A stretch of DNA of 64,000 nt from Patescibacteria group bacterium (GTDB lineage: Bacteria > Patescibacteriota > Patescibacteriia > 2-01-FULL-39-33): NCBI GenBank assembly GCA_041645075.1, contig JBAZQS010000003.1, positions 6,710 through 70,709 on the forward strand, read 5' to 3'. Each line of letters starts with the position of its first letter. Position 1 is the first letter of the stretch. Positions 3,100 to 63,418 of the stretch are shown here, piece by piece. Under the pieces are notes generated by a model. That model had not been told where the DNA came from. It worked only from the letters and a program-made list of their open reading frames with translations, and did not search any database. Position numbers and translations under genes: made by a program.

Positions 3100-3819
3100 T
3101 TACTGACTCGCGTCCTGATTTAGGGTGAAAATCATGGTCAAATCAAAAATGTCTCCCTGGAAATCATTGCCGGCTTCGTTGGCAAATTTAACGCCCATTT
3201 CATAGTCATACATACCCATATTGACAGGAGGTGGAAGATTGTCCAGAACATCATTCTTTAAATCATAAAAACTGATTTTCCCGTCGCCATTCTGGTCCTC
3301 TATTTTCCAGTCATTGCTCTGGCCTAATAAGGTTCCAGTACAAGTATGGTTTGAGCTGTTATATAATGCCCTTTTTTCACCGGTTAAACAATCTATACAG
3401 CCAAAATCTTTATAAATACATCTGGTAATTAACATTTCCTTTGCCATTTCGCCCGGGTGCAAATTTGTTTGACAATCAGTGTCCCCTTCCAGACAAGGAT
3501 TTTCTTCAACCACGGAATAATCACTGGTTATTTCAAGGTGATTTCCCGGCACGGTGCTGTCCCAAGATTCCTGCATTTGAACCAGAGGAATTCTAAAATC
3601 CCACGCATCCCCCGGCTTTACATCGGGGGGAGCGGTCCAGGTAGCGTGAACTCCATCTCCCCAGTCCTCATCCTGATCTCTAATTTTCAAATCCAAAATG
3701 CCGGCTGAAAATGTGTTTCCACTACTTGTTTCCGTATCCTGAAAATAGGCAATGGTTCCGCCAATGGCAATTGTTGCAACCACGGCAATAATACTCAAAC
3801 TGATTAGTATTCTTTTCAT
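3100..3819 (-). CDS. TasA/camelysin-like SipW-cognate secreted protein with EF-hand/dockerin-like Ca-binding loop
   Basis: MKRILISLSIIAVVATIAIGGTIAYFQDTETSSGNTFSAGILDLKI signal class. DQNGDGKISFYDLKND loop near C-terminus. Confidence 0.7.
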   Translation of the reverse strand: MKRILISLSIIAVVATIAIGGTIAYFQDTETSSGNTFSAGILDLKIRDQDEDWGDGVHATWTAPPDVKPGDAWDFRIPLVQMQESWDSTVPGNHLEITSDYSVVEENPCLEGDTDCQTNLHPGEMAKEMLITRCIYKDFGCIDCLTGEKRALYNSSNHTCTGTLLGQSNDWKIEDQNGDGKISFYDLKNDVLDNLPPPVNMGMYDYEMGVKFANEAGNDFQGDIFDLTMIFTLNQDASQ

Positions 3820-4671: not shown

Positions 4672-5114
4672 ACTTTTGTTTTTTTATTAATAATTAAATT
4701 CCTCCTAAATTAAACTTTCAACTTTAAACAATTAGGGTTAAACTGCTTTGAGCAATTCGACTTTAGAAACCACTAAATTGATTAAAGCGCGCAATGCAAT
4801 ATGTAAAATAAGTTATTTTTTAAAATAAAAAAACGCCTCAAAAAATCAGGCGCTTAACGTTTTATTGGATTGACTCGCATTATTCGGAAGGAAATTTCAG
4901 CTTGTTTTTCTACCGACATTTGCTAAAAGTAATTTTTTATTCCCCCCTAAAAATGCTAAACAACCTTATCCCCCTTAAACATTACTGCCTTATTTTATCA
5001 CCGCTCTAAAATAGGCGCAATGGCATAAGCGGTGGATAACTTTTAATTTATTTCAGCTAAATTTAAAATATCCCAGTAATAAGTGTTTATGAGATGGTTA
5101 CAAATCAAAATCTG

Positions 5115-5672
5115 CTATCTTTTATATAAGCCGGTCAAGACCGCCTGCTCAATGACGCGATCACCCAGCGCTTCTTTAAATTTATTCTTGTCTGTATTTT
5201 CGTCCAAAACCAGATTATCGCTTAAAGCGTAAAGCTTGAAATTATAGCGATGAACGCCCGAGGGCGGACAAGGCCCGTCATAAGTAGAGCGTCCAAAATC
5301 ATTTATACCCACGGCCGCGCCACTGGGAACGCTATTTTCGGTAATTTCTCGCGTATCGGACGAAATATTCCAAACCAGCCAATGGACAAAGTCGCCACTG
5401 GGAGAATCCGGGTCATCCACCATCAAGGCCAGACCCTTGGCGCCATCGGGAACACCGCTGATGGCCAGCGGCGGATTAACATTTTTCCCGCCACAAGTGT
5501 ATTGGGCAGGCAGGGATTGATTCGGCTCAAAGGCCGGACTGGTTAATTTCATATTGCCTAATTTAAAATTTTGAATTAAATTTTTATGATTGGCAGACCT
5601 TTGGAAAATAAAAAATATTCCGGCGATTACCGCCAACGCCGTAATAATTAAAATGATTGTGTTTTTTTTCAT
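5115..5672 (-). CDS. YbhB/YbcL family PEBP-like protein with N-terminal membrane anchor
   Basis: DPDSP...FVHWLVWNI...GPCPPSGVHRYNFKLYAL motifs of the PEBP family. Confidence 0.7.
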   Translation of the reverse strand: MKKNTIILIITALAVIAGIFFIFQRSANHKNLIQNFKLGNMKLTSPAFEPNQSLPAQYTCGGKNVNPPLAISGVPDGAKGLALMVDDPDSPSGDFVHWLVWNISSDTREITENSVPSGAAVGINDFGRSTYDGPCPPSGVHRYNFKLYALSDNLVLDENTDKNKFKEALGDRVIEQAVLTGLYKR

Positions 5673-6906: not shown

Positions 6907-7090
6907 GAGATGGTTACAAAACTATTTTAGCTATAAATTTAGGACTTTTTGAGCGAGACAAGGAGGGCCAGCAAAAAGATCTGAGCCGCCCCGACGTAAC
7001 ATCGGGGCGGTGAAAATCTTTTTGCGCCAGCCTGACGCAGTCGCAGCCAAAAAGGACAAATTTAGAGAAATATAGTTTTGTAACTATCTC
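6907..7090. mobile_element. MITE-like element, copy 1 (19-bp TIR GAGATGGTTACAAAACTAT ... ATAGTTTTGTAAC(T)ATCTC)
   Basis: Terminal inverted repeats read directly. The internal ~145 bp is ~80% identical to copy 2 in inverted orientation. It contains a gccccgacgtaacatcggggc hairpin. Confidence 0.6.
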
Positions 7091-7091: not shown

Positions 7092-7976
7092 TTAAGGAAT
7101 TACAACCTCAAGGGCTTTCGGCAAGACCTCTACCTCTATTTCCTTGGAAATTTTCAGGTAATCGCCGTCTATCTGGTAGGAATTCCAGCCACGATTCAAA
7201 TAAATCTTAAAATAATCATTATCCAAGGTAAAAATGTGTTTTTTCGGCTGTTGGCGCCAAAGCAAATAAAAAAGGTCGCTGATTAAAGAAAGCAGGGTTT
7301 TATTGGTAAAAACATAAAGATTTAAAATGCCGTCTTGCCAGTCAATATTCTTTTTCAATTTCAAGCCGAAATAATTTATGGCGTTAAAAATAACCAAACT
7401 ATTGCCCTTGACCCAAAATGTTTTATTTTGCGTTTTGATTTTAAATTTAATCTTTCTAATCTTAATTTTATTAAAAATAAATCGCCATAAATAGCCAAAA
7501 TAACCAAACTTATTTTTTAAATCGCCGGGGGTGCTGGCAATAACATGGGAAATATAGCCGATTGAAAGCCCCACCAAAAAATAATGATTCTGGTTTATTA
7601 GGCCAACGTCAATTTTAACGGTTTTTTCCGGTTGAGCCAATAACTTTATCGCTTGCTTGACGGTCAGAGGAATTCCCAGATCCGTGGCCATAACATTGGC
7701 CGAACCAAAAGGAATGATGCCAAGCGGGGCTGATAATTTATTATTTAAAATTGTCTTCGTCGCCACCTTAACCGTGCCGTCACCGCCCACCGCCACCACC
7801 AACTCCGTTCCCAAAAAATTATGCCCCGAAATCGCGGTTTCAAAATTATCATTTAAATAAAACAAATCAACTTGGTAGCCAAGCTCTTCAAGCTTATTTC
7901 TCACTAAGCCCTCAATATCCTGCTTGGTCATCAGGCCGGCGGATTTGTTGAAAATTACTAAAGCAATTTTGGTCAT
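7092..7976 (-). CDS. Diacylglycerol/lipid kinase catalytic-domain protein (YegS/BmrU-like)
   Basis: VAVGGDGTV, IIPFGSANVMATDLGIP motifs of DAGK_cat. Confidence 0.6.
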   Translation of the reverse strand: MTKIALVIFNKSAGLMTKQDIEGLVRNKLEELGYQVDLFYLNDNFETAISGHNFLGTELVVAVGGDGTVKVATKTILNNKLSAPLGIIPFGSANVMATDLGIPLTVKQAIKLLAQPEKTVKIDVGLINQNHYFLVGLSIGYISHVIASTPGDLKNKFGYFGYLWRFIFNKIKIRKIKFKIKTQNKTFWVKGNSLVIFNAINYFGLKLKKNIDWQDGILNLYVFTNKTLLSLISDLFYLLWRQQPKKHIFTLDNDYFKIYLNRGWNSYQIDGDYLKISKEIEVEVLPKALEVVIP

Positions 7977-8585: not shown

Positions 8586-8850
8586 ATTGATTATATTTTA
8601 CTATAAATTTGCGAGATATTCAATATAAATTATTCTATTTGCTAAATCCCCTATTTTAATATAGAATACAATCAGAAAAGATAGTGGATATGCGCGGGGT
8701 TTCACATATCGGGAGAACAAAAATCTTTTCTGCCCACCAATTTATCCAACCAAAAAATCGAAAGAAACCCATCTTAAAACTTCCCACCACTGCTTCCCGG
8801 ATAACAAAAAAGCGACGAACACCATCCCTTCGTCGCTTTCTCATTTAATG

Positions 8851-9025
8851 AGATGGTTACAAAACTATATTTCTCTAAATTTGTCCTTTTTGGCTGCGAC
8901 TGCGTCGGGCGGGCGCAAAATGATTTTCACCGTAGCCCCGCTATGGCTCAAGTCATTTTGCTGGCCCTCCTTGTCTCGCTCAAAAAGTCCTAAATTTATA
9001 GCTAAAATAGTTTTGTAACCATCTC
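8851..9025. mobile_element. MITE-like element, copy 2 (inverted relative to copy 1), overlapping the stop codon of the 9024..10715 gene
   Basis: GAGATGGTTACAAAACTAT at 8851 and ATAGTTTTGTAACCATCTC at 9007-9025. Confidence 0.6.
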
Positions 9026-10715
9026 ATTGTATATTCTTGTCGTCTTCCGATTTTGGATTAGCCGTAAAGCTCACGGGTTTTTTCCCTAAAGCGGTTGATA
9101 AGCTTATGGGCGGTTCGCTAATTTCTAATTTTTTTTCACTAATAATGGCCTGCTCGTTTTTTAACTCGCCTTTTTGATTGCCGGCCCGAAATTTAATCAA
9201 ACAATCTTGGCAGAAAACCGGCCTAATTCCGTCGGGTTTGAAATTAACCGTGGTCGCCACGCCGCAAGAAGAGCATTGAACCGTATATTGTTCCGGATTA
9301 GAAATATTTTTTTTGTTTTTCTTTTTCAAGTCCTGGTTAAAATTTTGGCTTTGAGGCGGACTGGGCAGCTGACGGTTAAAATTTTCTGTCCGGTCTTTGC
9401 CGCCGACCATTTGCACCACTTTATCGCTTAAATCAACCCCGCTCCAACGATTAATTTTCTCCTCTACTTCCGCCTTCGGATTGGCATATCTCTCGCGTGA
9501 AACCCGTATCACCTTCTCCGCGCTATCAGTGATAAATTCATCATATAGGGGCGGCAAGGTTGTCGCCGAAAATGGGTCGGAAGCCACGCCGTCAATCATC
9601 AATTTCAAATAAATATGATAGGCGGGCAGGCTGACTAAGTCCTCCTCAATAAAGGTCGGGGTAAATTCTTTGACTAATTCTTCCGCGTCAGAAGCGCCGA
9701 CCCGAAAGCCGATTAACGAGCCCACATTGCCGAATACGGCGTCGGAAACCTCCTCGGGCAGCTGTTTTATGTATTGATGGGCAATAATTAAATTAAGACG
9801 ATATTTTCTGGCTTCTGATAAAATATTAGAAAAACTTTCATTGGCAAAATTCTGGAATTCATCCACATAGAGATAAAAGTCCTGGCGCTCCAGCTCCGGT
9901 ATGTCAACCCGGCTCATGGCCGACAAATATAATTTCGTCACAATCATTGAGCCCAATAACTGCATGGTATCTTCGCCAATTCTGCCTTTTGATAAATTTA
10001 AAATCAAAATTTTCCGGTTATCAATTATTTCTCTTAAGTCAAAGGTTGATTTCACCTGGCCGACAATATTCCTGATTAAAACATTGGACAAAAATTGCCC
10101 GACTTTATTTTGAATCGGCGAAATAACTTCCTGCAAAACGCGGTCATTCCACTGGGTATATTCATTGGTCCAAAATGACTTAACGACCGGGTCTTTGATT
10201 TTTTCCACGACTTTTCTGCGGTAATCCTTATCCACCAGAATTCTCATAATACCCAAAAGCGTGCTACTCGGATAGTCCAAGAGCGCCAAAATCGCATTTC
10301 TTAAAATATATTCCAATCTCGGGCCCCAGCTATCGGCAAATTGTTTTTTAAATACACCCACCAAGCCGGAAGCAATGAAATGTTTGCTGTTTTCATCAAC
10401 GGCCTCTAAAATATTAAAAGCCACGGGATGTTCGGTATCGGCCGGATTAAAATAAATGAGATCATTTATCCGGTTTGGTGGAATGAAATTCAACAGCTTT
10501 TCCGCCGTATCGCCATGCGGGTCAATATAACAGCAGCCGTCGCCCCTGATAATATCGGAAATAATCATATTTTCCAGCAGACAGGTCTTACCCATGCCGG
10601 TTTTGCCAATAATATACATATGGCGGCGACGGTCGTCTCTTTTTATGCCAAAGGTTTTTCTTTCGCTGCGAAAATTGGTTTCGCCAAAAATTGTTATATC
10701 TTTATTGTCGGTCAT
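9024..10715 (-). CDS. VirD4/TraD/TrwB-like P-loop coupling ATPase (soluble, no TM) with C-terminal zinc ribbon
   Basis: Walker A GKTGMGKT, YIDPHGD (compare TrwB DPKGE), Walker B LYVDEFQNF, IIAHQ. C-terminal CSSCG...CQDC. Confidence 0.5.
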   Translation of the reverse strand: MTDNKDITIFGETNFRSERKTFGIKRDDRRRHMYIIGKTGMGKTCLLENMIISDIIRGDGCCYIDPHGDTAEKLLNFIPPNRINDLIYFNPADTEHPVAFNILEAVDENSKHFIASGLVGVFKKQFADSWGPRLEYILRNAILALLDYPSSTLLGIMRILVDKDYRRKVVEKIKDPVVKSFWTNEYTQWNDRVLQEVISPIQNKVGQFLSNVLIRNIVGQVKSTFDLREIIDNRKILILNLSKGRIGEDTMQLLGSMIVTKLYLSAMSRVDIPELERQDFYLYVDEFQNFANESFSNILSEARKYRLNLIIAHQYIKQLPEEVSDAVFGNVGSLIGFRVGASDAEELVKEFTPTFIEEDLVSLPAYHIYLKLMIDGVASDPFSATTLPPLYDEFITDSAEKVIRVSRERYANPKAEVEEKINRWSGVDLSDKVVQMVGGKDRTENFNRQLPSPPQSQNFNQDLKKKNKKNISNPEQYTVQCSSCGVATTVNFKPDGIRPVFCQDCLIKFRAGNQKGELKNEQAIISEKKLEISEPPISLSTALGKKPVSFTANPKSEDDKNIQ

Positions 10716-10746: not shown

Positions 10747-12327
10747 TCAAACCGTGGGTAAGTTTGCTGGGGGTGTCGGTGGCTTTCGCGGCTCGCCTCG
10801 ATTCGGCGAAGCGGGTGGTGCCGGCGGTTCAAAAATATTTTGTTTTCCTTCGGTGGGCAAAGCCAGGGGTGACGGAGCCGTCGGAATATGTGGCCTGGCC
10901 CCAGCATACGCGGGGCTAACCCCAGCATACGCGGGGCTCGCCACTGGCCCTTCAAAAACCGGCCTGGTTTCTTTCTTGACAATAAAATCGCGATTGCCAA
11001 TGGGGAGCCGGGTTGGCGGCACCACTTTCTTGCTCTCAATTTTTTCCACCATCGGCGCTTTGACGGTCATCACCGGGAAATGCCAAAGCGAGGCCAATTC
11101 CTCATTATTTAAAAGCATATTAGCCACGTTATCGCCATAATAATTGGTTCGTTTTATATAATACCTTAAAATTCTATTCTGTCTGTAAGCCACTCTTTTT
11201 TTTACCCGAAAATAATCCACGCTTGTTTTTGTTCTGGGGCCGGGCTTAAAGCCATTGGCATTGCTCACGCTAAACTGCTTGATTGAACCGATAATGGCGG
11301 CTACGCCCCGGCCTTTATTAAAAACCCCTTGTTCGGCCAGATAAACCAAACGGAATTTAACTCTAAAAGGGTGCTTGGCAAGTTTTTTCTGGATATTTTC
11401 CAAAAGCAATCTATCGCCCGGCGACATATTGAAAAGCCGAATCGTATCTTCCTTTTTCTTTTCTACTTCACCGGTCGCGCTCATTATACTGGTCAATAAA
11501 TTAACGCCTTGGGCCACCGCATTAACGGGTGCGTTGAGAATTTTATCCCCGAAAGTTGAGGGAGCGGTATAAATCTGGCCGCTAAATTCCTTAACAATTT
11601 TTTTTGCTTTTTCCCCCCACCCCGGCTCCGCCGGCAGAGGCGTAACCACCAGTTGCAGCCAGGCCTGTTCACCGGGCCCAAGCCGGCTTAAAATTTCCAA
11701 TAATCCGGCCATTGGGTCAAGAAATGTTTGGGTTAAAGTATGTTCAAATTCGGGATAAGTCCTGATTGGATAAGGATAGTCCTTGGTTAAAATAAATTCC
11801 GTGCCCCATAAATTATATTTTTCATTGGGAAAACGGAGGTGGGCATAATCCTGCGCGTAGTCCTCCACTTCGGTAATTTCCGCGTCCGGATATTGGGCAT
11901 AGATGGCGGCCTCGGCCAAGTCGCGAAGGTGGCTTGGCGTCCTGATTAAAAATTGAATATAGCCCTCTAAGCTTACAACTTCAAAAGAAAAACTTTCTTG
12001 ATTTTTTCCGGTCCAATATCTTTCTATTAAATTGCCGCTTGTTTGAGCGCCGGCCAAAGCCGCGAATATATTTTCTACGGCTTTTGGCGTCTGTTCGTTA
12101 TTTTTAGGAATATCAACGGCTAATAGGACGTGCTGCCATTTGCCGGCATATTGGCCCTGACGAGCGTCTAACCAGACCCGATACATAACAACGGTAAGCA
12201 AAATTAAAAAAATAACCCAGCCGCCGCCCAGAAATAATTGCCGGGCGATGGTCACCGGATCCTGCGAGCCAAAAACCGAAAATCGCTCCCACCAAGAAGC
12301 CAGGTCTAAGTTGAATTCAATATTCAT
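10747..12327 (-). CDS. Membrane-anchored hypothetical protein (1 N-terminal TM) with Pro/Ala-rich C-terminal repeat PAYAG; probably co-operonic with the VirD4-like ATPase
   Basis: TM GGGWVIFLILLTVVMY. Tandem DNA repeat ccccagcatacgcggggct x2 at ~10902-10945. Confidence 0.45.
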   Translation of the reverse strand: MNIEFNLDLASWWERFSVFGSQDPVTIARQLFLGGGWVIFLILLTVVMYRVWLDARQGQYAGKWQHVLLAVDIPKNNEQTPKAVENIFAALAGAQTSGNLIERYWTGKNQESFSFEVVSLEGYIQFLIRTPSHLRDLAEAAIYAQYPDAEITEVEDYAQDYAHLRFPNEKYNLWGTEFILTKDYPYPIRTYPEFEHTLTQTFLDPMAGLLEILSRLGPGEQAWLQLVVTPLPAEPGWGEKAKKIVKEFSGQIYTAPSTFGDKILNAPVNAVAQGVNLLTSIMSATGEVEKKKEDTIRLFNMSPGDRLLLENIQKKLAKHPFRVKFRLVYLAEQGVFNKGRGVAAIIGSIKQFSVSNANGFKPGPRTKTSVDYFRVKKRVAYRQNRILRYYIKRTNYYGDNVANMLLNNEELASLWHFPVMTVKAPMVEKIESKKVVPPTRLPIGNRDFIVKKETRPVFEGPVASPAYAGVSPAYAGARPHIPTAPSPLALPTEGKQNIFEPPAPPASPNRGEPRKPPTPPANLPTV

Positions 12328-18480: not shown

Positions 18481-18507
18481 GAGATGGTTACAAAACTATA
18501 TTTCTCT
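18481..18507. repeat. Solo TIR of the MITE-like family (GAGATGGTTACAAAACTAT...)
   Basis: Exact TIR match, 4 nt from the stop of 18511..19317. Confidence 0.5.
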
Positions 18508-18510
18508 CTC

Positions 18511-19317
18511 TTATGATTTTTTAATCGGTACTTCCACGACAAGCGGCTTATCCCCCTCTCTTTCAGGATCAATCTGAACATTCACGCTTTGGCGCAAGGT
18601 ATGCCAGCCAATCACCTGCCCCCGGCCGTGCTTGGTTCTGACTCTAGTGCCAACCGGCGGTAAATTTTTTGCCAATTCGTCATAAAGATTTTTTTCATAG
18701 CCCAAGCAGCATTTCAGACGGCCGCAAATGCCGGACAAGCGCTCTGAACCGCGATGAGCCACTTGCTGTTGCTCGGCTAATTCAGAAGTAACACTGCCCA
18801 ATTTCCTTAAATGGCTCTGGCAGCAAAGTTTGAGTCCACAACAACCGATATCGCCCGTGAGTTTGGCTTCATCGCGCACGCCCACCTGATGCAGTCGTAT
18901 GGTTTTTTGGAAATGGCGGGTTAACTCCTTGACCGCGTCCCGAAAATCAACCCGGCCATCAGCCACAAAAGCGAAAGTGAAACGGCGGCCGTCAAAAGAA
19001 GGGTGGCTGCCGATGATTTTCATCTCTAAACCCAATTTTTTGATAATCTTGCGGCCATACTCTACGACATTTTCCTTTTGCCGTTGATTGTCAGAAATGA
19101 TCGCCCAGTCATCATTGTTGGCCACTCTTTGAATAGAGCCGATTTCAGTCTCTCCTGTTTTTTCCGGTTCAATTTCTTTAATGCTAATTACCCGACCGGC
19201 GTCCACGCCAAAATCAGTGCTCACAATGACATAGTCGCCCACCCCGACATCAACATCGCCGACTTTGGCGGAAAATAAATTATCCCAAGGCGCGAATTGT
19301 ATTTGAGCGATTAACAT
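18511..19317 (-). CDS. PSP1 C-terminal domain protein (RicT/YaaT-like)
   Basis: CCGLKLCCQSH...RLKCCLGYE cysteine pairs typical of the PSP1 domain. Confidence 0.7.
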   Translation of the reverse strand: MLIAQIQFAPWDNLFSAKVGDVDVGVGDYVIVSTDFGVDAGRVISIKEIEPEKTGETEIGSIQRVANNDDWAIISDNQRQKENVVEYGRKIIKKLGLEMKIIGSHPSFDGRRFTFAFVADGRVDFRDAVKELTRHFQKTIRLHQVGVRDEAKLTGDIGCCGLKLCCQSHLRKLGSVTSELAEQQQVAHRGSERLSGICGRLKCCLGYEKNLYDELAKNLPPVGTRVRTKHGRGQVIGWHTLRQSVNVQIDPEREGDKPLVVEVPIKKS

Positions 19318-21350: not shown

Positions 21351-22307
21351 TTAAAAACCCCAATTGCGTCGCTCATCAAATAATTGGTCTCTCATTATTG
21401 AGCCAAATGAAACCGGTCGGCTAAACATGGAGCTTATTGGCGACATACAATCAATTCTTGGGGCGTCTTCTCTTCTTATCATATGGCCTACTGTAAAGCG
21501 GTTCTCAAAATCGCCAATGCGACCCATGGTCATATCACGCTCCTCTATCTCGCGTGCCTGGCGTTTCATTATCTGATCCAGCACTGTCTCTCCCCACCTT
21601 ACCGGAGCCATGTAATCTTCATAACTTCTTTCTACAGGCGGCAACACCGGCGAAGCAGTTCTCTTTGGCCACTGCGATTCTATTTCTTCCCATGGCTTTG
21701 GGCTAGTAGTCCTGTGGCTGGATGACTTGGGTCTAAACATTTCGGGTCTAAGCCCGGTCAGTTCTAACGTAGGAGCTGGTCTTGGAAATATTAGTGTTGG
21801 TTCTTCTTTTTCTCCAAACAAGCTTTTCATAGATCTTTCAAACAGGCCTTGCATAGACCTTTCTCTTTCTTCTTTTTCTCTCCTCCTGCCTTCCAGATAT
21901 CTTTCAGCCCATGCTATAGAGCTTTCCGGTTCATCAGGAACTCCGCGAGAGACGCTGTGAGTTTGTTGATGTCTGAGTATGGTCGACCTCTCAAGCCCGC
22001 CACAAAGGTCGTTAAGCACGCTCCACTGGGTGGTTGCTTCCAGACCCGTACTGAGTGTGGTGTGTGTCCTCCCCCTGTCTGTTGTGGCGTGCAATTTAGA
22101 GCTCTTAGAATTGAATGAGAAATGCGCGCCGTCATCAGAATCTGCATCAATCAGGAGCCCCATTGACCCGGTTGACTTATGTTTCCAGCCATAAGAGTCT
22201 GCATTTGAAGGCATTAACCGCTTCCTTGCTTCTTCTCTCTCCAGCCTCTCTTCCATCCATGTTTTCTTGGGTTCTTCTGTTTCTCCCAAGAAGTATATCT
22301 TATCCAT
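21351..22307 (-). CDS. Hypothetical hydrophilic, probably disordered protein (318 aa) in a compositionally atypical (~50% GC) island
   Basis: A 318-codon stop-free frame in a ~1-kb segment whose GC content is visibly higher than the flanks, with many overlapping ORFs in other frames. Charged low-complexity sequence (EGRRREKEERERS). No motif recognised. Confidence 0.4.
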   Translation of the reverse strand: MDKIYFLGETEEPKKTWMEERLEREEARKRLMPSNADSYGWKHKSTGSMGLLIDADSDDGAHFSFNSKSSKLHATTDRGRTHTTLSTGLEATTQWSVLNDLCGGLERSTILRHQQTHSVSRGVPDEPESSIAWAERYLEGRRREKEERERSMQGLFERSMKSLFGEKEEPTLIFPRPAPTLELTGLRPEMFRPKSSSHRTTSPKPWEEIESQWPKRTASPVLPPVERSYEDYMAPVRWGETVLDQIMKRQAREIEERDMTMGRIGDFENRFTVGHMIRREDAPRIDCMSPISSMFSRPVSFGSIMRDQLFDERRNWGF

Positions 22308-26865: not shown

Positions 26866-26899
26866 AAACCCCGCCTCGACGTGACATCGGGGCGGGGTT
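26866..26899. terminator. Hairpin of the CCCCGnCGACGTnACaTCGGGGCGGGG family
   Basis: aaccccgcctcgacgtgacatcggggcggggttt read directly. Confidence 0.5.
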
Positions 26900-27291: not shown

Positions 27292-27390
27292 ATATTAAAT
27301 TTTATTATTGTATTATTAATTATGCTACTTTAAAAAATCTATGTCAAGCGCCTGAACGGAAAAAATTGAGATAGTTGCAAAACCATCTCA

Positions 27391-28524
27391 TTAAGATTTT
27401 CTGGAGATTATGCTTGAACGATAAATATTGAGCATCATACCCGCCGCGGACATAACCACAATTAAAAAACTGCCCCCATAGCTGATAAACGGCAAAGAAA
27501 TGCCCGTGACCGGCAAAAGACCGATGCCCATGCCGATATTGATAAAAACCTGGACAAAAATCAGGATTAAAACCAACAATGATAAAAATAGGCCGAAGTC
27601 ATCCGGCGCGCTACGGGCAATCCGATAAATTCGGTATAACAATAAAATAAACAAGCCCAGAACCAAAACCACACCCACAAAACCCAGCTCTTCAGCCATG
27701 ACCGAAAAAATAAAATCGGTTTGGCTCTCCGGAATGAATTTTAATTGGCTTTGCGAACCAAAACCCAATCCCCGGCCCATTAGCCGGCCCGCGCCCACCG
27801 CGATAATGGACTGCCGGACATTATAACCTCGCCCTTGTGGGTCTAAAGAAGGATTAATAAATGTTTTAATGCGGTCCCTTTGATAATCTTCAAAAACCAA
27901 AAACCAGCTTGTTAAAAAAACCAGCGCCATCAACCCTAAAACCATGATGATATGCCATTTATTTTTTGTCACCAAAAAGAAAGAGAGAAACCAGATAAAA
28001 AACAAAACCAGGGCCGAACCAAAATCCGGCTGAATCATCACCAAGCCAAGGGGCATGAGCATAATCAAACCGACAAAAATTAATTGCCATAGTTTATGAA
28101 TGGTTCGGGCGTGGCGGCTGTAGACATCAGCCAGACAGAGAATTAAAAAAAGTTTCATCAATTCAACCGGCTGAAAACTAAAAAAACCAAAGGAAAACCA
28201 GCCGCGCGTGCCGCGTATGGTCGAGCCCAGCGGGGTTAAGACCAAAACCAATAAAACCAAGCCGATTATATAGCCAAGCCAGCACCACCGTCGCCAACTA
28301 TGATAATCAATATTGGCGAAGAACAACATAAGCGCCAAACCGGCCGCGAGCCAAATTAACTGCTTCTGAAAATTCATAAATTGCCCTTGACCCTGGCCCA
28401 AAGCCACGCTATAAATCGCGGCCAAGCCAAAAAAAATCAAAAGGATTACGGCCATAAAAAAAAGCCAGTCAATTTTTTTTAAAAAAGGAAAATACCGATC
28501 AAAAATCATATAGTTATTGTTCAA
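27391..28524 (-). CDS. ftsW: SEDS family peptidoglycan glycosyltransferase FtsW/RodA
   Basis: 10 TM. SQSQLKFIPESQTDFIFSVMAEELGFVG. Confidence 0.8.
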   Translation of the reverse strand: MNNNYMIFDRYFPFLKKIDWLFFMAVILLIFFGLAAIYSVALGQGQGQFMNFQKQLIWLAAGLALMLFFANIDYHSWRRWCWLGYIIGLVLLVLVLTPLGSTIRGTRGWFSFGFFSFQPVELMKLFLILCLADVYSRHARTIHKLWQLIFVGLIMLMPLGLVMIQPDFGSALVLFFIWFLSFFLVTKNKWHIIMVLGLMALVFLTSWFLVFEDYQRDRIKTFINPSLDPQGRGYNVRQSIIAVGAGRLMGRGLGFGSQSQLKFIPESQTDFIFSVMAEELGFVGVVLVLGLFILLLYRIYRIARSAPDDFGLFLSLLVLILIFVQVFINIGMGIGLLPVTGISLPFISYGGSFLIVVMSAAGMMLNIYRSSIISRKS

Positions 28525-31834: not shown

Positions 31835-33595
31835 CTATTTTTGTTCTTTCTTAAACGTGACTACTTTCTCGCCCTTGGCCAATCCGGAAATTACTTCCAC
31901 TAACCCATTATCGCCGCGCAAGCCGATGGTTACTGTTTTTTCAGTGGTCTGATTATTATCGCCTAAGACCGCCACGTATTTTTCCGCCACTTCGCCCAAT
32001 GTCGTTTCCCTGACTTTTACCGCCCTTTGGGGAATATACAAAACATTGTCTTTTTCCGCGGTTTTAATCGTAACATCCGAGGTCATACCCGATTTCACCC
32101 TTTCATTCCACGAATCAGAATCAAAACCGACTGTCGTTTGGTAATAAACCACGTCTTGAATAGTAGTTTGCGCGGGATCAATAAAGGTTACCAGGCCCGA
32201 AAAAATATGGTCGGCGCCAAAAGCATCAAGCTGGATTACGGCCTGGTCGCCGATTTTAATTTTAGCAATATCTGATTCCGGTATATTAACTTTGATTTGC
32301 AATTTTTCATTGCCCAGCATTTTAATGGCCGGCTTGGCCAGGCCGTCTTGCCCGCTGGAAACAAAATTTGTCTGCTCGCCCAATTTATAATTCACTTGGA
32401 TAACGGTGCCGTCAATGGGCGCGACAATAGCATAATCTTTCAAACCGACCAGCGTCTGGTCTAATTGCGCTTGGGCTTGAGCGACCTGCGCCCTAGCCGC
32501 GGCCAGGTCAAAAGTCCGGGGACCGGCTTTTTTCAAATCTAATTGCGCCTTAGAAATCGCCAAGGAATTTTCCGCGGCCCCAATCTGTGAATCATAACTA
32601 TTGATATTGTTTGCTAAATTGGACTTGGCGGTTTGCAAGGCATTTAAAGAAGCATTGTTTGCTGATTGCTCGGCATTAATATCTGATTTGATGGCGTCTT
32701 TTTTGGTCTGGGTGTAAACGGCATTTAATATAATGGCATTGGCTAAATTATAAGAATTATCTAAAAGATTAGTAAGGTCGGTTAAAATTATTCTTAACTT
32801 ATCTGCTCGTTCAATAATCAACTTGCTGTCCGTATTATTAACCGAATCAACATCATTGGCTACAAGATTAAAATTCTTGCTGACATTATAATAATCTGAC
32901 TCAACTCGGTTCTTAAGTGCCGTATTGTTTACCAGCAAGTCACTGATTAAATCGCGGTTAATAAAATAATTAAAAATTTTATTTAGGGCGACCTTCACCG
33001 TAAAAACCGCATTATTGATTGAGTCCGAATTTTTCTCTTTTAAAATATTCAACTGCTCGGCGCTTTCTGATTTTTGACTGGCTAAATCGTCAACGGCCTT
33101 AGCGGCCTGCCGTTCCAAAACATTAATATCTTCTGGCGAAGCGCCAGCCATAACTTTAGCCAAATTAGCATTAGCGGCCGCCACATTGGCGCGCTCTTGA
33201 GCAATAACCGGCGCGACATTGCTGGCATCAACTCGGCCGAGAACTTCGCCGGCTTTTACTTTGCCGCCTTGGCCAACTTTTAAATAAATGAGCCGGCCGT
33301 TATTTTTAAAATTAAGATTAATTTCTTCGGACGATTCTATGTTGCCGGTCGCGCTTACCGTCTGGGTAAGCTTGCCCTGTTTGACTGCCTCGGCCGTATA
33401 CTCAATGGCCGGTTTTTTGCCGAAAAAAATCAGGCCCACTACGGCAATAATTAAAATTACTATAACTGCAAACCAAAATAATTTTCTCTTGAATAATTTT
33501 TTAACGCTAAAGCCCTTTTTCGCCCCAACGTCACGTCGGGACGGAATATTAAGGGCTTCATAAGTATTAATTGGATTATTTAAGATTGGCTCCAT
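31835..33595 (-). CDS. HlyD/MacA-like periplasmic adaptor (membrane fusion protein) with long coiled-coil
   Basis: N-terminal TM, long coiled-coil, beta-barrel/lipoyl segments. Contains an in-frame ccccaacgtcacgtcgggacg hairpin repeat near the 5' end (~33523-33545). Confidence 0.7.
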   Translation of the reverse strand: MEPILNNPINTYEALNIPSRRDVGAKKGFSVKKLFKRKLFWFAVIVILIIAVVGLIFFGKKPAIEYTAEAVKQGKLTQTVSATGNIESSEEINLNFKNNGRLIYLKVGQGGKVKAGEVLGRVDASNVAPVIAQERANVAAANANLAKVMAGASPEDINVLERQAAKAVDDLASQKSESAEQLNILKEKNSDSINNAVFTVKVALNKIFNYFINRDLISDLLVNNTALKNRVESDYYNVSKNFNLVANDVDSVNNTDSKLIIERADKLRIILTDLTNLLDNSYNLANAIILNAVYTQTKKDAIKSDINAEQSANNASLNALQTAKSNLANNINSYDSQIGAAENSLAISKAQLDLKKAGPRTFDLAAARAQVAQAQAQLDQTLVGLKDYAIVAPIDGTVIQVNYKLGEQTNFVSSGQDGLAKPAIKMLGNEKLQIKVNIPESDIAKIKIGDQAVIQLDAFGADHIFSGLVTFIDPAQTTIQDVVYYQTTVGFDSDSWNERVKSGMTSDVTIKTAEKDNVLYIPQRAVKVRETTLGEVAEKYVAVLGDNNQTTEKTVTIGLRGDNGLVEVISGLAKGEKVVTFKKEQK

Positions 33596-36008: not shown

Positions 36009-37838
36009 CTACTTCACTGCCTTTTTTATGTCTTTAATTTCTTTGCCAATCAGCCCCTCCGAATCGTCTAAGTCCTTTTTGAGCTGCTGGAAAATCTTTT
36101 CTTCTTCTTTGGTCAGCGGTCTTTTATTTTGCGTTTTATTGAGTAATTTAATCTGATTCCGGATGTCTTTTTTCAATAAATCAAAGGCCCGATGCAAGGT
36201 CTGCTCGGCTTCTTGAACTTCTTTTCGCAGTCGGTTTCTAAAGAGGACAAATTTATGCCAGCCAAACCAAAGAATAAACAAAAGCAGGATAACTAAGGCC
36301 GCCAACGGCACCGCGACCGAAAGCAAGGCGACTGCCAGCGACCCTACCCGCAAGAAAGCCGGACGCTTGACCGCCATCGTCAGCTTTTCGGTGGGCAAAC
36401 TTTTGGCTTGCCGTTCATCCACCACCTCGGCCCAAAAATTATAAATGCCGTCTTTTAGCCGTTCATCAGCGATAAAAGTAAAATTTCCTTTTTCATCGGC
36501 TTTTACGCTCTGGCTTTTTAACTCCCCTTTTTCTCCTTGAAACCACATCGTTACTAATGAACGGAGATAGCGGCTGATTCCTTTTATCACTAAAATTTCG
36601 CCGCTGGCCAAGACCTTTGGATACTCGGTAATCACCGGCGTCTCCAAGGGCTTAATGGTAAATTCTGCGGTGGCGATTCGGTCATTTCCGGCTTTGTCAA
36701 ACGCCTTGACCACGATGGTGTGTCGGCCAGGCCCTGGCGGCGGCAGAGGGAAAATATGCGGCTGATTTGGTCTTTCTATCTTATCCTCGTAATTGGAAAC
36801 AAACCACTCGCCATTGTCAACTTTTACATCGCAATGTCCCGCTATCCCCGAAAGCGAATCTTCGTGGTCAACTATTATGGTGGGACGGGGATTGTCTGTT
36901 TCATTGCCATCAACAAATCTTATCTCAAACGGCTCGGGCGGCGTCGTGTCAATTTGAATTTTAAAATGAGTGATTGGTCCCCAGCCGGCAGAATTCCTCA
37001 TTTTTATATGGAAATACCAAACACCATCTTCAATGTTTTCATATGACTTGGCGGCAAATAGGCCATTGGAAACCGGGCCCGGGTTAGAGGTGGGGCTTTG
37101 GCTGAAATACACGCTCACCCCATTAACATTAGCCGGCAAAGCCCAGGAAAATTGCGGATTTTTATTACTATACCATTTATTGGACTCCGGGTGAGTGGCC
37201 GAGGATACTTGAGGCGCCGAAGGCGCGCCGGAAATTGGCGCCGGCGCGAGCTTCTCTTCCGTTACCTCGGGAACGGTTGGCACGGCGCCGCCCAAACTAA
37301 ACTGTGCGCTCCCCAAACTTGCCAAAATATTAGTGCCCTTGCCATCATTGGCGAGCGCCGAGCCCGAGGAAAAATTAAGCCGAGCGGTACCGGCTGTTTT
37401 CACTTTAAAATTTGCGGTAAGAACTTTACCGGCCGCCCCGCTAAATCCCGGATTAAGCACAATCCCTTCAAAATTAATTACGCCGGCGCTGTTGGAAAAT
37501 GACGGCTCCAAAACCCAGAGAGAAAAAATGGAGCCGGATTTTGAAAGAGAAGTAATTTCCAGTTTATCGCGCGGGAAAGAAATCACGCCCGAGGCCGCGT
37601 TCATGGCTTGGTCGGCGCTGGAAACATAGACATTGACGTTAAAAGTTTTTCCCACCGCATAGGAGCCGGAGGAGGGGGAAAAATACAGCGAGGCGGCTTG
37701 CGCTGTTGCGGGCAGAATGCCAAAAACAATAAACAGCAACGCGCTGCTAATTAGCAAGCATCTTACATTTTTAAATATTTCCTCCATAAAATTTTTATTG
37801 CGTAAGTAATAGCGAATCCTAATATAATTATAAGCCAA
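36009..37838 (-). CDS. Cohesin-like domain surface protein with C-terminal TM anchor and cytoplasmic coiled-coil tail (likely start at internal Met MEEIF, ~37787)
   Basis: Signal peptide, then SLYFSPSSGSYAVGKTFNVNVYVSS...VISFPRDKLEI...GIVLNPGFSGAAGKVLTANFKV (cohesin-type beta-sandwich pattern). TM VGSLAVALLSVAVPLAALVILLLFILWFGW. Confidence 0.5.
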   Translation of the reverse strand: MAYNYIRIRYYLRNKNFMEEIFKNVRCLLISSALLFIVFGILPATAQAASLYFSPSSGSYAVGKTFNVNVYVSSADQAMNAASGVISFPRDKLEITSLSKSGSIFSLWVLEPSFSNSAGVINFEGIVLNPGFSGAAGKVLTANFKVKTAGTARLNFSSGSALANDGKGTNILASLGSAQFSLGGAVPTVPEVTEEKLAPAPISGAPSAPQVSSATHPESNKWYSNKNPQFSWALPANVNGVSVYFSQSPTSNPGPVSNGLFAAKSYENIEDGVWYFHIKMRNSAGWGPITHFKIQIDTTPPEPFEIRFVDGNETDNPRPTIIVDHEDSLSGIAGHCDVKVDNGEWFVSNYEDKIERPNQPHIFPLPPPGPGRHTIVVKAFDKAGNDRIATAEFTIKPLETPVITEYPKVLASGEILVIKGISRYLRSLVTMWFQGEKGELKSQSVKADEKGNFTFIADERLKDGIYNFWAEVVDERQAKSLPTEKLTMAVKRPAFLRVGSLAVALLSVAVPLAALVILLLFILWFGWHKFVLFRNRLRKEVQEAEQTLHRAFDLLKKDIRNQIKLLNKTQNKRPLTKEEEKIFQQLKKDLDDSEGLIGKEIKDIKKAVK

Positions 37839-38656
37839 TTCTCATAGTTTTCATACCAACGAAGCGGATTCCGCGGTGAAATTTGTTCCACTCGTGTATT
37901 GCCGGCTTTATCAACCGCTTTCACAAAAATATAACTGCGCAATTCTTGATCTTGCAAAATATATGGGCTTTCTTTTTGAGACCACCTTTGAAATATATCA
38001 AAAAACTTCTGGCGGGATTCCCTTATCTCATAATGGTCAATACCCGAACCTTTATCTTGAGTAGCGAAAACAACAAACCACTTACCGCCAAAAGTCGACT
38101 CATCTTTGGCAATTTCCGGCATAAATGATTCTGGCGACTCGGTATCTTTTACTTTTGTAACTATGGGGGTTACAGCCAGAGCTTCCAAAGAGATCGTTAT
38201 CTCAAGCGGCGCTGTTGTTAAAGCCGCCGAAGATCCCATACCGTCATTTCGCAAAACTTTTGCGTCGCTAACTTCAAAATGGGCAATACCTTCCGATTTT
38301 GCTTCTAAGACAGCCGAAAAAAGCAGGCCGTTATTTCCTTGAAATCCGCCGGGCGTGATGCCAGAAAATGTAACGGTGTCATTTTGCGCCTTAGGTCTAT
38401 CAATCCAAAAATTTATAAGTGAATTCCCGTCTCGTATCTCTTTTACCCCAACAAGATTGCTTGGAAAAATAATTTTTCCTTCAAGCGCGTTAACGCTTTC
38501 TTCCGGAGTATTTATAAGAAGCTTAACCTCAAATTGCTCGCCAACTCCCACTCCGCTTGTTTTCGCTTCAAAGAAAAGATCAGCCGCAAAAACGAGTTGA
38601 GGCAAGATCAGTCCCAACAATAATACCAATAAAATTTTAGTTAGAAAATGTTTCAT
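37763..38656 (-). CDS. Cohesin-like domain surface protein with C-terminal TM anchor
   Basis: Signal peptide, then LFFEAKTSGVGVGEQFEVKLLINT...GKIIFPSNLVGVKEI...GLLFSAVLEAKSEG. C-terminal TM. Confidence 0.5.
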   Translation of the reverse strand: MKHFLTKILLVLLLGLILPQLVFAADLFFEAKTSGVGVGEQFEVKLLINTPEESVNALEGKIIFPSNLVGVKEIRDGNSLINFWIDRPKAQNDTVTFSGITPGGFQGNNGLLFSAVLEAKSEGIAHFEVSDAKVLRNDGMGSSAALTTAPLEITISLEALAVTPIVTKVKDTESPESFMPEIAKDESTFGGKWFVVFATQDKGSGIDHYEIRESRQKFFDIFQRWSQKESPYILQDQELRSYIFVKAVDKAGNTRVEQISPRNPLRWYENYENWLIIILGFAITYAIKILWRKYLKM

Positions 38657-41380: not shown

Positions 41381-41767
41381 ATGTTTTTACCAAATTCACA
41401 TTCTTTTTTGTTGGTAAAATCGGCCATTGCCAAGCCGGTTATTCAATCTGGTACTCAAGAATCTGCAATAATTTTGCCATCATCCTCACCATCAGATTAT
41501 AGGAGGAATTTGTTTTTACCAAATTCACATTCTTTTTTGTTGGTAAGATCGGCCATTGCCAAGCCGGTTATTCAATCTGGTACTCAAGAATCTGCAATAA
41601 TTTTGCCGTCATCCTCATCATCAGATTATAGGAGGAATTTGTTTTTACCAAATTCACATTCTTTTTTGTTGGTAAGATCGGCCATTGCCAAGCCGGTTAT
41701 TCAATCTGGTACTCAAGAATCTGCAATAATTTTGCCGTCATCTTTCTCGTCAGATTCCGGTAAGCCG
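41381..41767 (+). repeat. 3 x 129-bp tandem repeat, each unit carrying TGgTAAAAT extended -10-like motif and AGGAGG + TTG/ATG
   Basis: Units start at 41381 (ATG), 41510 (TTG) and 41639 (TTG). They are near-identical and the third diverges at its 3' end. Confidence 0.75.
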
Positions 41768-42376
41768 ACAATCGGCGATAAAAACAAAAGAACTTTTTTG
41801 AAAGTGGCTGGCATTGCAGGCGCCGGTCTTGTCGGTTCACTGCTTTTGCCTAAAAAGGCCTCGGCCTTGATAATGGGCAGTTCACCCACAACAGGAGTGG
41901 TCGGTGTCAAAAATTCAACCAACGCGAGAATCAACCCCGCTACAGAAGAAACGGTTAATTCACTACTTAAACCTTCAGATTTAAGTTTTGATACCGGATC
42001 TTTGAAAGTTAAGGTAACCTCTGTCTCTGGCGACGGCTCTAGTAGTTTTAGTAATTCGGGAGGCGTGGCCAAAAGCGGTCTGGTAGATGTTGACCGACAT
42101 GTTCAGGTGGACGTATTAACTTCGGGGTTACCATCATCGGCTTCAACAGAAACCACTCTGCAGACTATTTCTTTTGGTGGTTTTAAATTTACTCTTCGCC
42201 TGGCAACGGTTGGTGACATTGATTACGTGGGGGAAGCGTCAATTGGGACAGCCACTTCTGCCGCGTCATGGCGTATAAAAAAGATTGACAGTACTACTGG
42301 TATAATTATCCAATGGGCCGGTACGGGAGTTTTTGACCAAATATGGGATAATCGCGCTTCTTTAAGCTATAGTTAA
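41381..42376 (+). CDS. Small secreted protein with Tat-like signal (NKRTFLKVAGIAGAGLVGSLLLPKKASA); the N-terminal 130 aa are encoded by the tandem repeats (true start may be a downstream TTG)
   Basis: KR-variant twin-arginine motif followed by h-region and ASA cleavage site. Mature part Ser/Thr/Gly-rich. Confidence 0.5.
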   Translation: MFLPNSHSFLLVKSAIAKPVIQSGTQESAIILPSSSPSDYRRNLFLPNSHSFLLVRSAIAKPVIQSGTQESAIILPSSSSSDYRRNLFLPNSHSFLLVRSAIAKPVIQSGTQESAIILPSSFSSDSGKPTIGDKNKRTFLKVAGIAGAGLVGSLLLPKKASALIMGSSPTTGVVGVKNSTNARINPATEETVNSLLKPSDLSFDTGSLKVKVTSVSGDGSSSFSNSGGVAKSGLVDVDRHVQVDVLTSGLPSSASTETTLQTISFGGFKFTLRLATVGDIDYVGEASIGTATSAASWRIKKIDSTTGIIIQWAGTGVFDQIWDNRASLSYS

Positions 42377-49675: not shown

Positions 49676-50398
49676 TTGGAAAATTTTAAAAAAAATATAG
49701 AAAAATTTCTTCCATTTTTGGAAGATCTGCGTGAACGATTGTATCGCGGGGTAATTTTATTCGTCGTATTCTTTTTGGTCGGCTTTCTCTCTTCTGGAAT
49801 AATTCTAAAAAAAATATTAAAACTTGTTCATATCGATCAGGTGGTAATCGCCACTTCTTCACCATTTCAGTTTACCGAGATAGCGATGGATGTTGGGTTT
49901 TTCCTCGCGATTATGGTTTCTGTTCCGTACATAATTTATAGCTTTTATGTCTTCATTATACCCGCATTAACTAGAAGCGAGAAAATAAAACTTTTAAAAT
50001 CTATTCCTTTAAGCGTTGGATTATTCATTGTTGGATCTTTTTATGGGTTTTTTATTCTTTACTATGCTTTAGGATTATTAGCTTCTGTCAACATCAGTTT
50101 AGGGATCGCCAATTTTTGGAATATCGGTCAATTTTTAACAGAAATGCTTATTACCTCCGCTTTGTTGGGATTGGTCTTTGAGCTTCCTCTCCTCTTGTCT
50201 CTGCTTATAAAACTGGGGATAACTACACCCCAAACCCTCAAAAACAATAGGCGCGTCGCTTATTTTTTAACCATTTTTCTGACCGCTTTACTTCCGCCAA
50301 CCGATGGTGTATCATTAATAGCGATGGCACTGCCACTTGTGCTACTATACGAGGGGACGATATTATTAAATAATAAAAAAACAATATGTTTGGATTAG
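49676..50398 (+). CDS. tatC: Sec-independent translocase TatC
   Basis: 6 TM. FxxxxFxxGxxFxYF-like segments SFYGFFILYYALG... Confidence 0.8.
   Translation: MENFKKNIEKFLPFLEDLRERLYRGVILFVVFFLVGFLSSGIILKKILKLVHIDQVVIATSSPFQFTEIAMDVGFFLAIMVSVPYIIYSFYVFIIPALTRSEKIKLLKSIPLSVGLFIVGSFYGFFILYYALGLLASVNISLGIANFWNIGQFLTEMLITSALLGLVFELPLLLSLLIKLGITTPQTLKNNRRVAYFLTIFLTALLPPTDGVSLIAMALPLVLLYEGTILLNNKKTICLD

Positions 50399-58997: not shown

Positions 58998-63417
<4,420 letters not shown>

Positions 63418-63418
<1 letters not shown>

Follow-up and report, generated by a model that had tools for sequence, protein, structure and literature searches.

Introduction

Several families of hairpin-forming MITEs (miniature inverted-repeat transposable elements) have been described in bacteria, including Correia/NEMIS in Neisseria, ERIC/IRU and YPAL in Enterobacteria, RUP in Streptococcus pneumoniae and Nezha in cyanobacteria. 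Repetitive extragenic palindromes (REPs) are GC-rich hairpins of 20-40 nt with a 5' GTAG-type tetranucleotide; they have neither terminal inverted repeats (TIRs) nor a target-site duplication (TSD) and are moved by the HUH Y1 enzyme RAYT (TnpA-REP). Among insertion sequences (IS), the ends of the IS1031 group read GAG in the ISfinder tables. The genomes of the candidate phyla radiation (CPR), or Patescibacteria, are ~1 Mb in size, streamlined and thought to be poor in mobile DNA. Here, we analyze a stretch of 64,000 nucleotides from a Patescibacteria group bacterium (GenBank assembly GCA_041645075.1, contig JBAZQS010000003.1, positions 6,710 to 70,709 of the forward strand; the whole stretch is referred to as the window), in which a short repeat with 19-bp inverted ends occurs at six sites. 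Our conclusion, to which we assign a probability of roughly 0.8, is that these copies are non-autonomous DNA transposons of a MITE family that is moved in trans by a transposase encoded outside the window. The family is apparently an undescribed, CPR-wide hairpin MITE with 19-bp ends and a 3-bp TSD.

As reviewed by Delihas, bacterial MITEs are generally <200 bp and up to ~400 bp long, have TIRs and a TSD, and carry no transposase gene (PMC3184786). The element described here has every one of the structural features of bacterial MITEs, i.e. the size, TIRs, a TSD, the lack of a transposase gene, a long stem-loop and dispersed copies. Within the IS5 family, the IS1031 group makes an exclusive 3-bp target duplication and prefers 5'-TNA-3' (PMC12016507), and the features on which a comparison with IS5/IS1031 can be based are the 3-bp duplication, inverted repeats of ~17-24 bp starting with GA, and small elements (PMC12016507, PMC2516522). 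No paper with the TIR sequence or on MITEs in the CPR was found in the searchable literature, which omits most subscription journals.

Full and shortened copies share one pair of ends

An earlier interpretation of the letters alone (referred to as the sequence-only reading) had claimed a family with a 19-bp TIR and three full copies, and this is borne out. The 19-mer GAGATGGTTACAAAACTAT has nine matches with ≤3 mismatches in the 64 kb of the window compared with 0.01 expected from dinucleotide-preserving shuffles, and none of 100 shuffles reached nine. Six of the nine matches are the paired inverted ends of three full copies of 176-184 bp. The ends are TIRs of 19-23 bp, 5'-GAGATGGTTACAAAACTAT(TTC), with 23 bp in most copies, and the TIRs of the full window copies have 0-1 mismatches. 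Once copy 1 is reverse-complemented, the three full copies align end to end in one register; copies 1 and 2 are thus related in opposite orientation as the sequence-only reading had it, but their identity is 91.5% rather than ~80%, and copy 3 is 75-78% identical to either of them. The coordinates given there for copy 1 stand, while copy 2 starts at 8850 instead of 8851 and copy 3 ends at 63593 instead of 63594. Three further sites had been taken for solo or partial TIRs and turn out to be elements with internal deletions or truncations in which traces of both ends persist. Altogether, ~1% of the window belongs to this element family, as follows (the 175-nt class is defined below).

6907-7090, minus strand ("forward" orientation): full copy 1, 175-nt class, 184 bp, TIRs at 6907-6925 and 7072-7090 (GAGATAG variant)
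6986-7010: GC-rich hairpin inside the copy 1 apex, ccgCCCCGACGTAACATCGGGGcgg, from a separate terminator-like hairpin family
8850-9025, plus strand (forward orientation): full copy 2, 176 bp, antisense to the minus-strand genes on either side
63418-63593, plus strand: full copy 3, 176 bp, diverged subfamily, perfect TSD ATA/ATA (63415-63417 and 63594-63596)
27368-27389: mini-element of 22 bp, GAGATAGTTGCAAAACCATCTC, both termini fused and the interior lost, TSD ATT/ATT
18481-18510: truncated remnant of 30 bp, its first 27 nt matching the left end of copy 2 exactly and its other end degenerate, flanks TTA/TTA
5091-5120: degenerate remnant of ~30 bp, GAGATGGTTACAAA...GCTATCT

A stop codon is adjoined at all six sites, namely that of genes 7092-7976(-), 9024-10715(-), 60017-63418(+), 5115-5672(-), 18511-19317(-) and 27391-28524(-), and the neighbors are housekeeping genes (encoding a DAGK-like kinase, MnmA, a TrwB-like ATPase, a CarS-like protein, GAPDH, RodA/FtsW, a PEBP-family protein and an intein-containing GyrB). 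Copy 1 occupies the spacer from the TAA stop codon (7092-7094) that ends the DAGK-like gene to the mnmA start codon (ATG, 6895), with flanks AAT/AAA that represent an imperfect TSD. An insertion of eight columns in the three-copy alignment is found in copy 1 alone, and the nested GC-rich hairpin accounts for these extra 8 bp; the sequence-only reading had correctly ascribed an internal GC-rich hairpin to one copy, and this hairpin belongs to a separate family with seven sites in the window. Also as claimed there, copies 2 and 3 overlap stop codons. Specifically, the last two bases of copy 2 are the GA of the TGA stop codon of the TrwB-like gene 9024-10715(-), giving a 2-nt overlap (T-GA, the hyphen marking the element boundary here and below), and the TSD of this copy is imperfect; the first base of copy 3 is the G of the TAG stop codon (TA-G) of the intein-containing gyrB gene 60017-63418(+), and a separate canonical intrinsic-terminator-like hairpin follows at ~63616-63660. 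The mini-element at 27368-27389 adjoins the TAA stop codon of a rodA/ftsW-like gene, 27391-28524(-). For the remnant at 18481-18510, the TTA on the right supplies the TAA stop codon of gene 18511-19317(-), which encodes a PSP1 domain, and the TAG stop codon of the PEBP-family gene 5115-5672(-) lies inside the degenerate right terminus (AGATAG) of the remnant at 5091-5120. Equivalent minis of 22 bp and 33 bp occur independently in five other loci (L041, L066, L062, L044 and L089), which fits a deletion between the short direct repeats AAC(T/C)AT that are present in both TIRs.

A 3-bp target duplication and unrelated interiors between the same ends

The sequence-only reading had suggested searching for copies with a conserved TIR elsewhere and for TSDs, and both are found. 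One scan of a species-representative genome collection (596 Gb) with GAGATRGTTACAAAAYTAT yielded at least 105 loci with the exact 19-mer. Approximately 17 matches are in unrelated taxa (Bacteroides, Nitrosotalea, Oceanobacillus and others); each of these is solitary, and their number equals the chance expectation for the pattern in 596 Gb. The remaining matches listed are in metagenome-assembled genomes (MAGs), most of them titled with names of CPR/Patescibacteria lineages, i.e. Falkowbacteria, Gribaldobacteria, Taylorbacteria, Buchananbacteria, Kerfeldbacteria, Doudnabacteria, Portnoybacteria, Peribacteria, Paceibacterota and "Saccharibacteria". Some of the matches listed, few in number, are in MAGs that were binned automatically and carry the labels Gammaproteobacteria or Planctomycetales, and one of these (L066) contains a gene with 74% DNA identity to one in the window. 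By pairing inverted TIR matches in the window and the at least 105 public loci listed, we obtained 70 bounded elements, which are the basis of the following counts.

A perfect direct repeat of exactly 3 bp flanks 42 of the 70 elements, compared with a mean of 9.3 and a maximum of 20 when the right flanks were permuted (5000 permutations), with no excess of flanking repeats at 2, 4 or 5 bp. Among the duplicated triplets, AAT (11), TAT (10) and ATT (7) predominate, TAA (2) and TTA (1) are rare, and the others include GAT, CAT, GTT, TCT, AGT and CTA. Taken more widely, the target reads as an AT-rich near-palindrome, TAY-WWT-RTA, as would be expected if a symmetric transpososome with a 3-bp staggered cut chose the site.

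The elements are 22-273 bp long with a mode at 175-178 bp. Three length classes stand out, with ~40 elements at 173-184 bp (mostly 175-178 bp; the 175-nt class), seven at 130 bp and eight at 49 bp, the last consisting of a TIR, an 11-nt loop region and a second TIR. Further elements measure 129, 142 and 152 bp, minis span 22-78 bp, and the elements of 201-273 bp are derivatives of the 175-nt class with small insertions. The interiors of the 130-, 142-, 152- and 68/78-bp classes are unrelated to that of the 175-nt class, and in total at least six unrelated interiors are enclosed by the same ends. Therefore, the constant part of the element is its pair of ends. Among 40 copies, the TIRs have a mean pairwise identity of 94%. 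Interiors are on average 92% identical within one genome, reaching 99-100% in the Taylorbacteria MAG MHSB01, and 69.5% identical between genomes, which indicates recent bursts inside genomes. The elements are too short for a transposase gene and contain no conserved open reading frame (ORF), and the ATG of some copies is not conserved; an ATG-initiated ORF and the Shine-Dalgarno-like GAGGAAGG on the complementary strand were ruled out as coding because they are not conserved across copies. The exact 3-bp TSD, the unrelated interiors and the lack of a match to an RNA family (see below) sustain the interpretation of the sequence-only reading that the element is a non-autonomous MITE.

In a 175-class copy of one of the Falkowbacteria (L068, MFFY01000036.1, positions 2411-2500), the first 33 nt of the element are followed by an interrupting palindromic repeat of another, GC-rich kind, CCTGCCTGCCGGCAGGCAGG..., which suggests a further small repeat family nested in the MITEs of this lineage.

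Orthologous spacers with and without the element

The order of the TrwB-like, CarS-like, DAGK and MnmA genes is kept in relatives whose DAGK is ~60% identical. Two of these loci (L118 and L119) have a TrwB-CarS junction of 9 nt and a DAGK-MnmA junction of 4 nt, and a third (L117) has a TrwB-CarS junction of 14 nt and a CarS-DAGK junction of 9 nt, in all cases with no element; in the window, copy 2 lies exactly in the TrwB-CarS junction and copy 1 exactly in the DAGK-MnmA junction. This difference in presence is between genomes (L117-L119) and not between strains of one species. In another relative (L115, CAYIVH010000002.1, at 3402-3579, and L116, a Hainich groundwater contig, at 2248-2425), a 178-bp copy of the same subfamily lies 19 nt past the stop codon of a DAGK gene whose product is 63% identical. 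This copy has the opposite orientation to copy 1 of the window, and synteny breaks just past it, with a sigma-70 gene in place of mnmA. It represents either an independent insertion at a hot junction or an inversion of the interior between the TIRs.

Two other comparisons for a nucleotide-level empty site gave no information: in L032/L057 synteny is broken at the elements, and look-ups of exact proteins found no match for GyrB and for DAGK only the same genome (L106 and L107). One of these two loci, the 1471-bp contig L107 (ENA ERZ27247322, k141_276760) from the same organism, ends 4 nt past the DAGK stop codon at the edge of copy 1, which illustrates that the repeats break short-read assemblies. 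A composite transposon formed by copies 1 and 2 around the DAGK and CarS genes was rejected because relatives have the same genes in this order, which is thus ancestral, and no TSD is seen at the outer flanks. Likewise, alternative element ends TGAGATGG...CCATCTCA (IS3-like TG...CA) were discarded because no TSD results.

We also observed a further segment of 264 bp (8586-8849) between copy 2 and the CarS-like gene. It contains a 62-aa ORF, 8656-8844(-), that has no Pfam match and is also called as a gene in the identical contig L106. Because L117-L119 hold only 9-14 nt at the TrwB-CarS junction, this segment is also lineage-specific.

Compensatory changes preserve the hairpin

Each full window copy folds into one imperfect hairpin of ~85 bp with folding energies of -78 kcal/mol for copy 1 (z -11.6), -76.9 kcal/mol for copy 2 (z -10.1) and -71.1 kcal/mol for copy 3 (z -8.95) relative to shuffles. 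RNAalifold returned the same single hairpin for an alignment of 40 copies of the 175-nt class. In this alignment, 94.8% of the cells in paired columns can pair, compared with 85.5% in column shuffles and 35-47% with the partners shifted by 1-3 columns; changes on both sides are seen in 31 of 50 pairs compared with 17 in shuffles; and the covariation score is 0.321 compared with 0.154 (shuffled) and ~0.057 (shifted). These compensatory changes demonstrate that the pairing is actively preserved while the sequence drifts. The sequence-only reading had set covariation of a structured RNA against variable content bounded by TIRs as if one excluded the other; the variable content is there and covariation is strong in the 175-nt class, so this was a false dichotomy.

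Two motifs, CTTCGTC in the 5' arm and CTTCCTCGTC in the 3' arm, are conserved and are direct rather than inverted repeats; they are unpaired and form a conserved internal loop. In 26 of 26 copies, the purine-rich strand is the better folder, by ~12 kcal/mol over the complementary strand. Because the energy gap between the strands is equal in copies that are sense and antisense to the neighboring genes (12.2 and 11.4 kcal/mol, respectively; p = 0.94), this asymmetry is a property of the element and not an adaptation of the transcribed strand, and selection at the RNA level on the transcribed strand was therefore dismissed for lack of support. We suggest that the hairpin is probably kept because it aids transposition, e.g. 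by bringing the ends together, or because a stable RNA hairpin is better tolerated within an operon.

Nearness to stop codons is better supported as target choice than as a 3'-end module

The sequence-only reading had placed the element always at gene 3' ends and had offered a target-site preference for stop-codon contexts or a function as a transcript 3'-end module in explanation. The first statement holds for the six sites in the window and fails for the family, in which a stop codon lies within 7 nt of the element in 23 of 70 cases, i.e. ~4-fold the number expected if stops were spread evenly over 60 nt. In ten cases, the element end is overlapped by a long ORF's stop codon, seven times as T-GA and three times as TA-G. 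Within 30 nt of element ends there are 19 start codons compared with 22 stop codons, the ends keep 8-20 nt away from the starts, and many copies fill the whole spacer between two co-directional genes. Relative to such flanking genes, 15 elements of the 175-nt class are in sense and 12 in antisense orientation.

Reconstruction of two window junctions is informative about how stop codons come to lie at the boundary. If copy 3 and one ATA are removed, the reading ...GAT ATA TAA is restored, as opposed to the present stop codon TA-G. For copy 2, the reconstructed junction is CAA TAA ATG, with the stop codon abutting the next start codon, and the present stop codon is T-GA. The nearness to stop codons fits an AT-rich target (TAY-WWT-RTA) and also termini that rebuild the stop codons T-GA and TA-G. 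In mechanistic terms, an AT-rich palindromic target would be found mostly at gene junctions in compact genomes, where a TAA followed by T matches Y-AAT. Because the element starts with GAG, insertion after the T or the TA of a stop codon would recreate TGA or TAG. Insertions would survive if the upstream ORF and the downstream ribosome-binding region stay intact, such that those in or right past stop codons may be tolerated and the ends come to lie at least 8 nt from start codons. Of the two explanations, target-site preference is the better supported cause of the nearness to stop codons, and the AT-rich near-palindrome, which accommodates contexts such as TAA-T, speaks in its favor.

The alternative is that the repeat is not mobile DNA but a structured non-coding RNA (ncRNA) gene or a transcript 3'-end module acting as terminator or stabilizer. 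The long stable hairpins (z -9 to -11.6), the covariation and the stop codons adjoined at all six window sites would be accounted for in this way. The exact 3-bp TSD, the unrelated interiors within the same ends and the equal frequency of both orientations would not; nor would the many copies that end 8-20 nt before the next start codon inside operons. In the window, only a tRNA passes the gathering threshold of an Rfam scan, and on the element there is nothing meaningful even at E ≤10, the best hit being MIR821 (a plant miRNA hairpin) with 30 bits compared with a gathering score of 249; the check for a known ncRNA that had been suggested therefore returned no family. A consensus scan for promoters and terminators assigned neither to the element, the main stem is not followed by a T-run, and terminator-like calls concern only small internal stems, including the nested GC-rich hairpin of copy 1 with a weak, displaced T-run. 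Finally, copy 3 is followed by its own separate canonical terminator hairpin. We consider an ncRNA or 3'-end module very unlikely, and the orientation counts, the similar numbers of starts and stops and the missing T-run leave the proposal of a 3'-end module in the sequence-only reading unsupported.

Imperfect palindromes directly past stop codons are also typical of sites for site-specific recombination, either integron attC-like or Xer/dif-like, and GTTACAA/TTGTAAC in the TIR loosely recalls the attC core GTTRRRY. This interpretation is hardly credible, given that the order GTT...AAC is the reverse of that in attC (RYYYAAC...GTTRRRY), GTTACAA departs from GTTRRRY, the neighbors are housekeeping genes of conserved synteny instead of cassettes, no integrase was found in the window, and a 3-bp duplication and random orientation are observed.

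Searches for a transposase and the weight of contrary evidence

In keeping with the sequence-only reading, no transposase or integrase family was found in a Pfam scan of 51 window ORFs. Eight ORFs (10747-12327, 21351-22307, 37763-38656, 41381-42376, 42891-45512, 45672-47492, 51102-51740 and 58998-60005) have no Pfam match at E = 0.1, and another (52612-53286) has only a negligible match to KOW2_Spt5 (E = 0.076). These nine Pfam-poor ORFs encode 212-873 aa and are typical CPR "dark" proteins; one of them could in principle hide a transposase, and nothing points there. In the related loci, the solo TIRs adjoin ordinary genes. Two candidates for an autonomous partner were examined and rejected, as L060 4375-5445 is an ATPase gene and L113 3317-4635 consists of bactofilin and lipid-kinase genes.

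Several results weigh against the conclusion that the copies are non-autonomous transposons moved in trans. In ~860 kb of related loci, there is no IS-sized pair of TIRs (≤4-5 mismatches, up to 3.5 kb apart), with or without a TSD, and an all-against-all blastn of the loci detected no multi-copy repeat >300 bp and none of IS size. A scan of viral contigs (IMG/VR) for the TIR gave 0 matches, and a metagenome scan for the TIR followed by VV, which avoids the known MITE classes, gave seven matches with no insertion sequence or transposase. Moreover, 28 of the 70 copies have no perfect TSD, and the "empty sites" described above are orthologous spacers between genes for proteins that are only ~60% identical and not empty alleles at the nucleotide level. 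Lastly, a TIR that is nearly invariant over very deep lineages, together with strong covariation in the hairpin, is unusual for MITEs that are purely selfish and decay. This combination could point to a function at the level of the host.

Such a function is the core of another explanation, in which the copies are former MITEs that have become a domesticated, host-maintained system similar to REP/RAYT. A conserved single-copy CPR protein would recognize the 19-bp ends, and the 175-nt hairpin would serve the cell in operon spacers, e.g. as substrate of RNase III, by stabilizing mRNA, or as a DNA-structural or protein-binding site. In line with this idea, the TIRs are 94% identical and the interiors only 69.5% identical between genomes of deeply divergent CPR lineages, compensatory changes keep the pairing, the unpaired direct repeats CTTCGTC and CTTCCTCGTC are conserved in the internal loop, the purine-rich strand is invariably the better folder, and an IS partner is missing from the loci as well as from the viral and metagenome scans. 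Nevertheless, we regard domestication as quite unlikely: there is no candidate protein, the orientation relative to transcription is random and the strand asymmetry independent of it, the same ends carry many unrelated cargoes and decayed minis, close relatives have no element at the same spacers, and the recent bursts within genomes look selfish. Because the ends are near-invariant over deep lineages and the partner is absent, we keep a single-copy enzyme among the explanations. More broadly, it is unlikely, without being negligible, that a conserved single-copy host protein (a DDE-type analogue of REP/RAYT or a transposase family that Pfam does not recognize) keeps the ends and the hairpin CPR-wide and that the hairpin has been co-opted in operon spacers, e.g. 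in the processing or stabilization of RNA or as a site of protein binding or DNA structure. If true, this would be the first such partnership of host and element described in these minimal genomes.

Other features of the window

A second repeat family, with the GC-rich hairpin core cGCCCCGACGTnACGTCGGGGCg, has 13 strand-matches at seven sites compared with 0.02 expected:

3610-3628: cGCCCCGACGTnACGTCGGGGCg hairpin
6989-7007: cGCCCCGACGTnACGTCGGGGCg hairpin
26874-26892: cGCCCCGACGTnACGTCGGGGCg hairpin
33523-33541: cGCCCCGACGTnACGTCGGGGCg hairpin
53304-53322: cGCCCCGACGTnACGTCGGGGCg hairpin
58950-58968: cGCCCCGACGTnACGTCGGGGCg hairpin
63621-63639: cGCCCCGACGTnACGTCGGGGCg hairpin

Several of these hairpins lie between genes with A-runs or T-runs in the manner of (bidirectional) intrinsic terminators, and one is nested in the apex of copy 1. 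That these terminator-like hairpins have one sequence in common could reflect a mobile mini-hairpin or convergent selection. The GyrB protein encoded by 60017-63418(+) owes its length of 1133 aa to an intein (Pfam Intein_splicing, residues 469-889) that splits it immediately ahead of the Toprim domain. In addition, self-BLAST (50628-51083 against 50362-50826) revealed a tandem duplication at 50362-51083 whose period is ~260 bp and whose units are 86% identical, upstream of ORF 51102-51740, one of those with no Pfam match.

Discussion

We propose that the copies in the window are non-autonomous elements on whose 19-23-bp TIRs a transposase would act in trans, each insertion duplicating exactly 3 bp. 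Copies amplify within genomes and insert either way round into the very short AT-rich spacers of compact CPR genomes, and the staggered 3-bp duplication in combination with TIRs points to a transposase of the DDE type. The occurrence of the family in many class-level lineages, together with copies that are 99-100% identical in some genomes, implies active transposition, and some transposase must exist there. The concept itself is not new, because hairpin MITEs beside stop codons are well known in other bacteria. In practical terms, these repeats break assemblies, change the spacing between genes as well as their stop codons, and might be misannotated as ncRNAs. On the other side, the copies are a natural marker for tracking populations and strains, and the exactly conserved 19-bp end could help to track down the enzyme and might become a genetic tool in organisms for which none is available at present.

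How does this element compare with known systems? With integron attC sites it has in common imperfect palindromes right past the stop codons of ORFs. It differs from them in the order and sequence of the core sites (GTTACAA...TTGTAAC), in the absence of cassettes and of an integrase, in having a TSD and in its random orientation. REPs and the bacterial interspersed mosaic elements (BIMEs) built from them are likewise short palindromic repeats just past stop codons that are abundant, conserved within clades and without a transposase inside, and they offer a possible model for maintenance by a single-copy host gene; unlike REP/BIME, the element is AT-rich, measures 175 bp, is bounded by 19-bp TIRs and makes a 3-bp TSD.

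The similarity to the IS1031 group, and to the related eukaryotic PIF/Harbinger-Tourist MITEs, lies in the 3-bp duplication, in inverted repeats of ~17-24 bp that start with GA and in the small size. In contrast to the preference of that group, only 3 of the 42 perfect TSDs are TNA (TAA twice and TTA once), and the TIR of ISLrh, GAACCTGTCTAGTATCT, is not similar to that of the element. No IS1031-like transposase was seen near the copies, although no search with a sequence of that group was made. We therefore treat kinship with IS5/IS1031 as a weak lead and not as membership.

The closest resemblance in architecture is to Correia/NEMIS, ERIC/IRU, YPAL, RUP and Nezha, which are likewise non-coding elements of 100-200 bp with TIRs, a short AT-rich TSD and one long stem-loop, and which also exist as many dispersed intergenic copies in both orientations and as internally deleted variants. 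The element described here departs from them in that no parent insertion sequence was found, the sequence of its TIR is unrelated, and its TSD is 3 bp (WWT) and not TA. It also stands apart in the compensatory evolution of its stem, which is documented here, and in its hosts, which are CPR/Patescibacteria from many class-level lineages as opposed to one genus or family.

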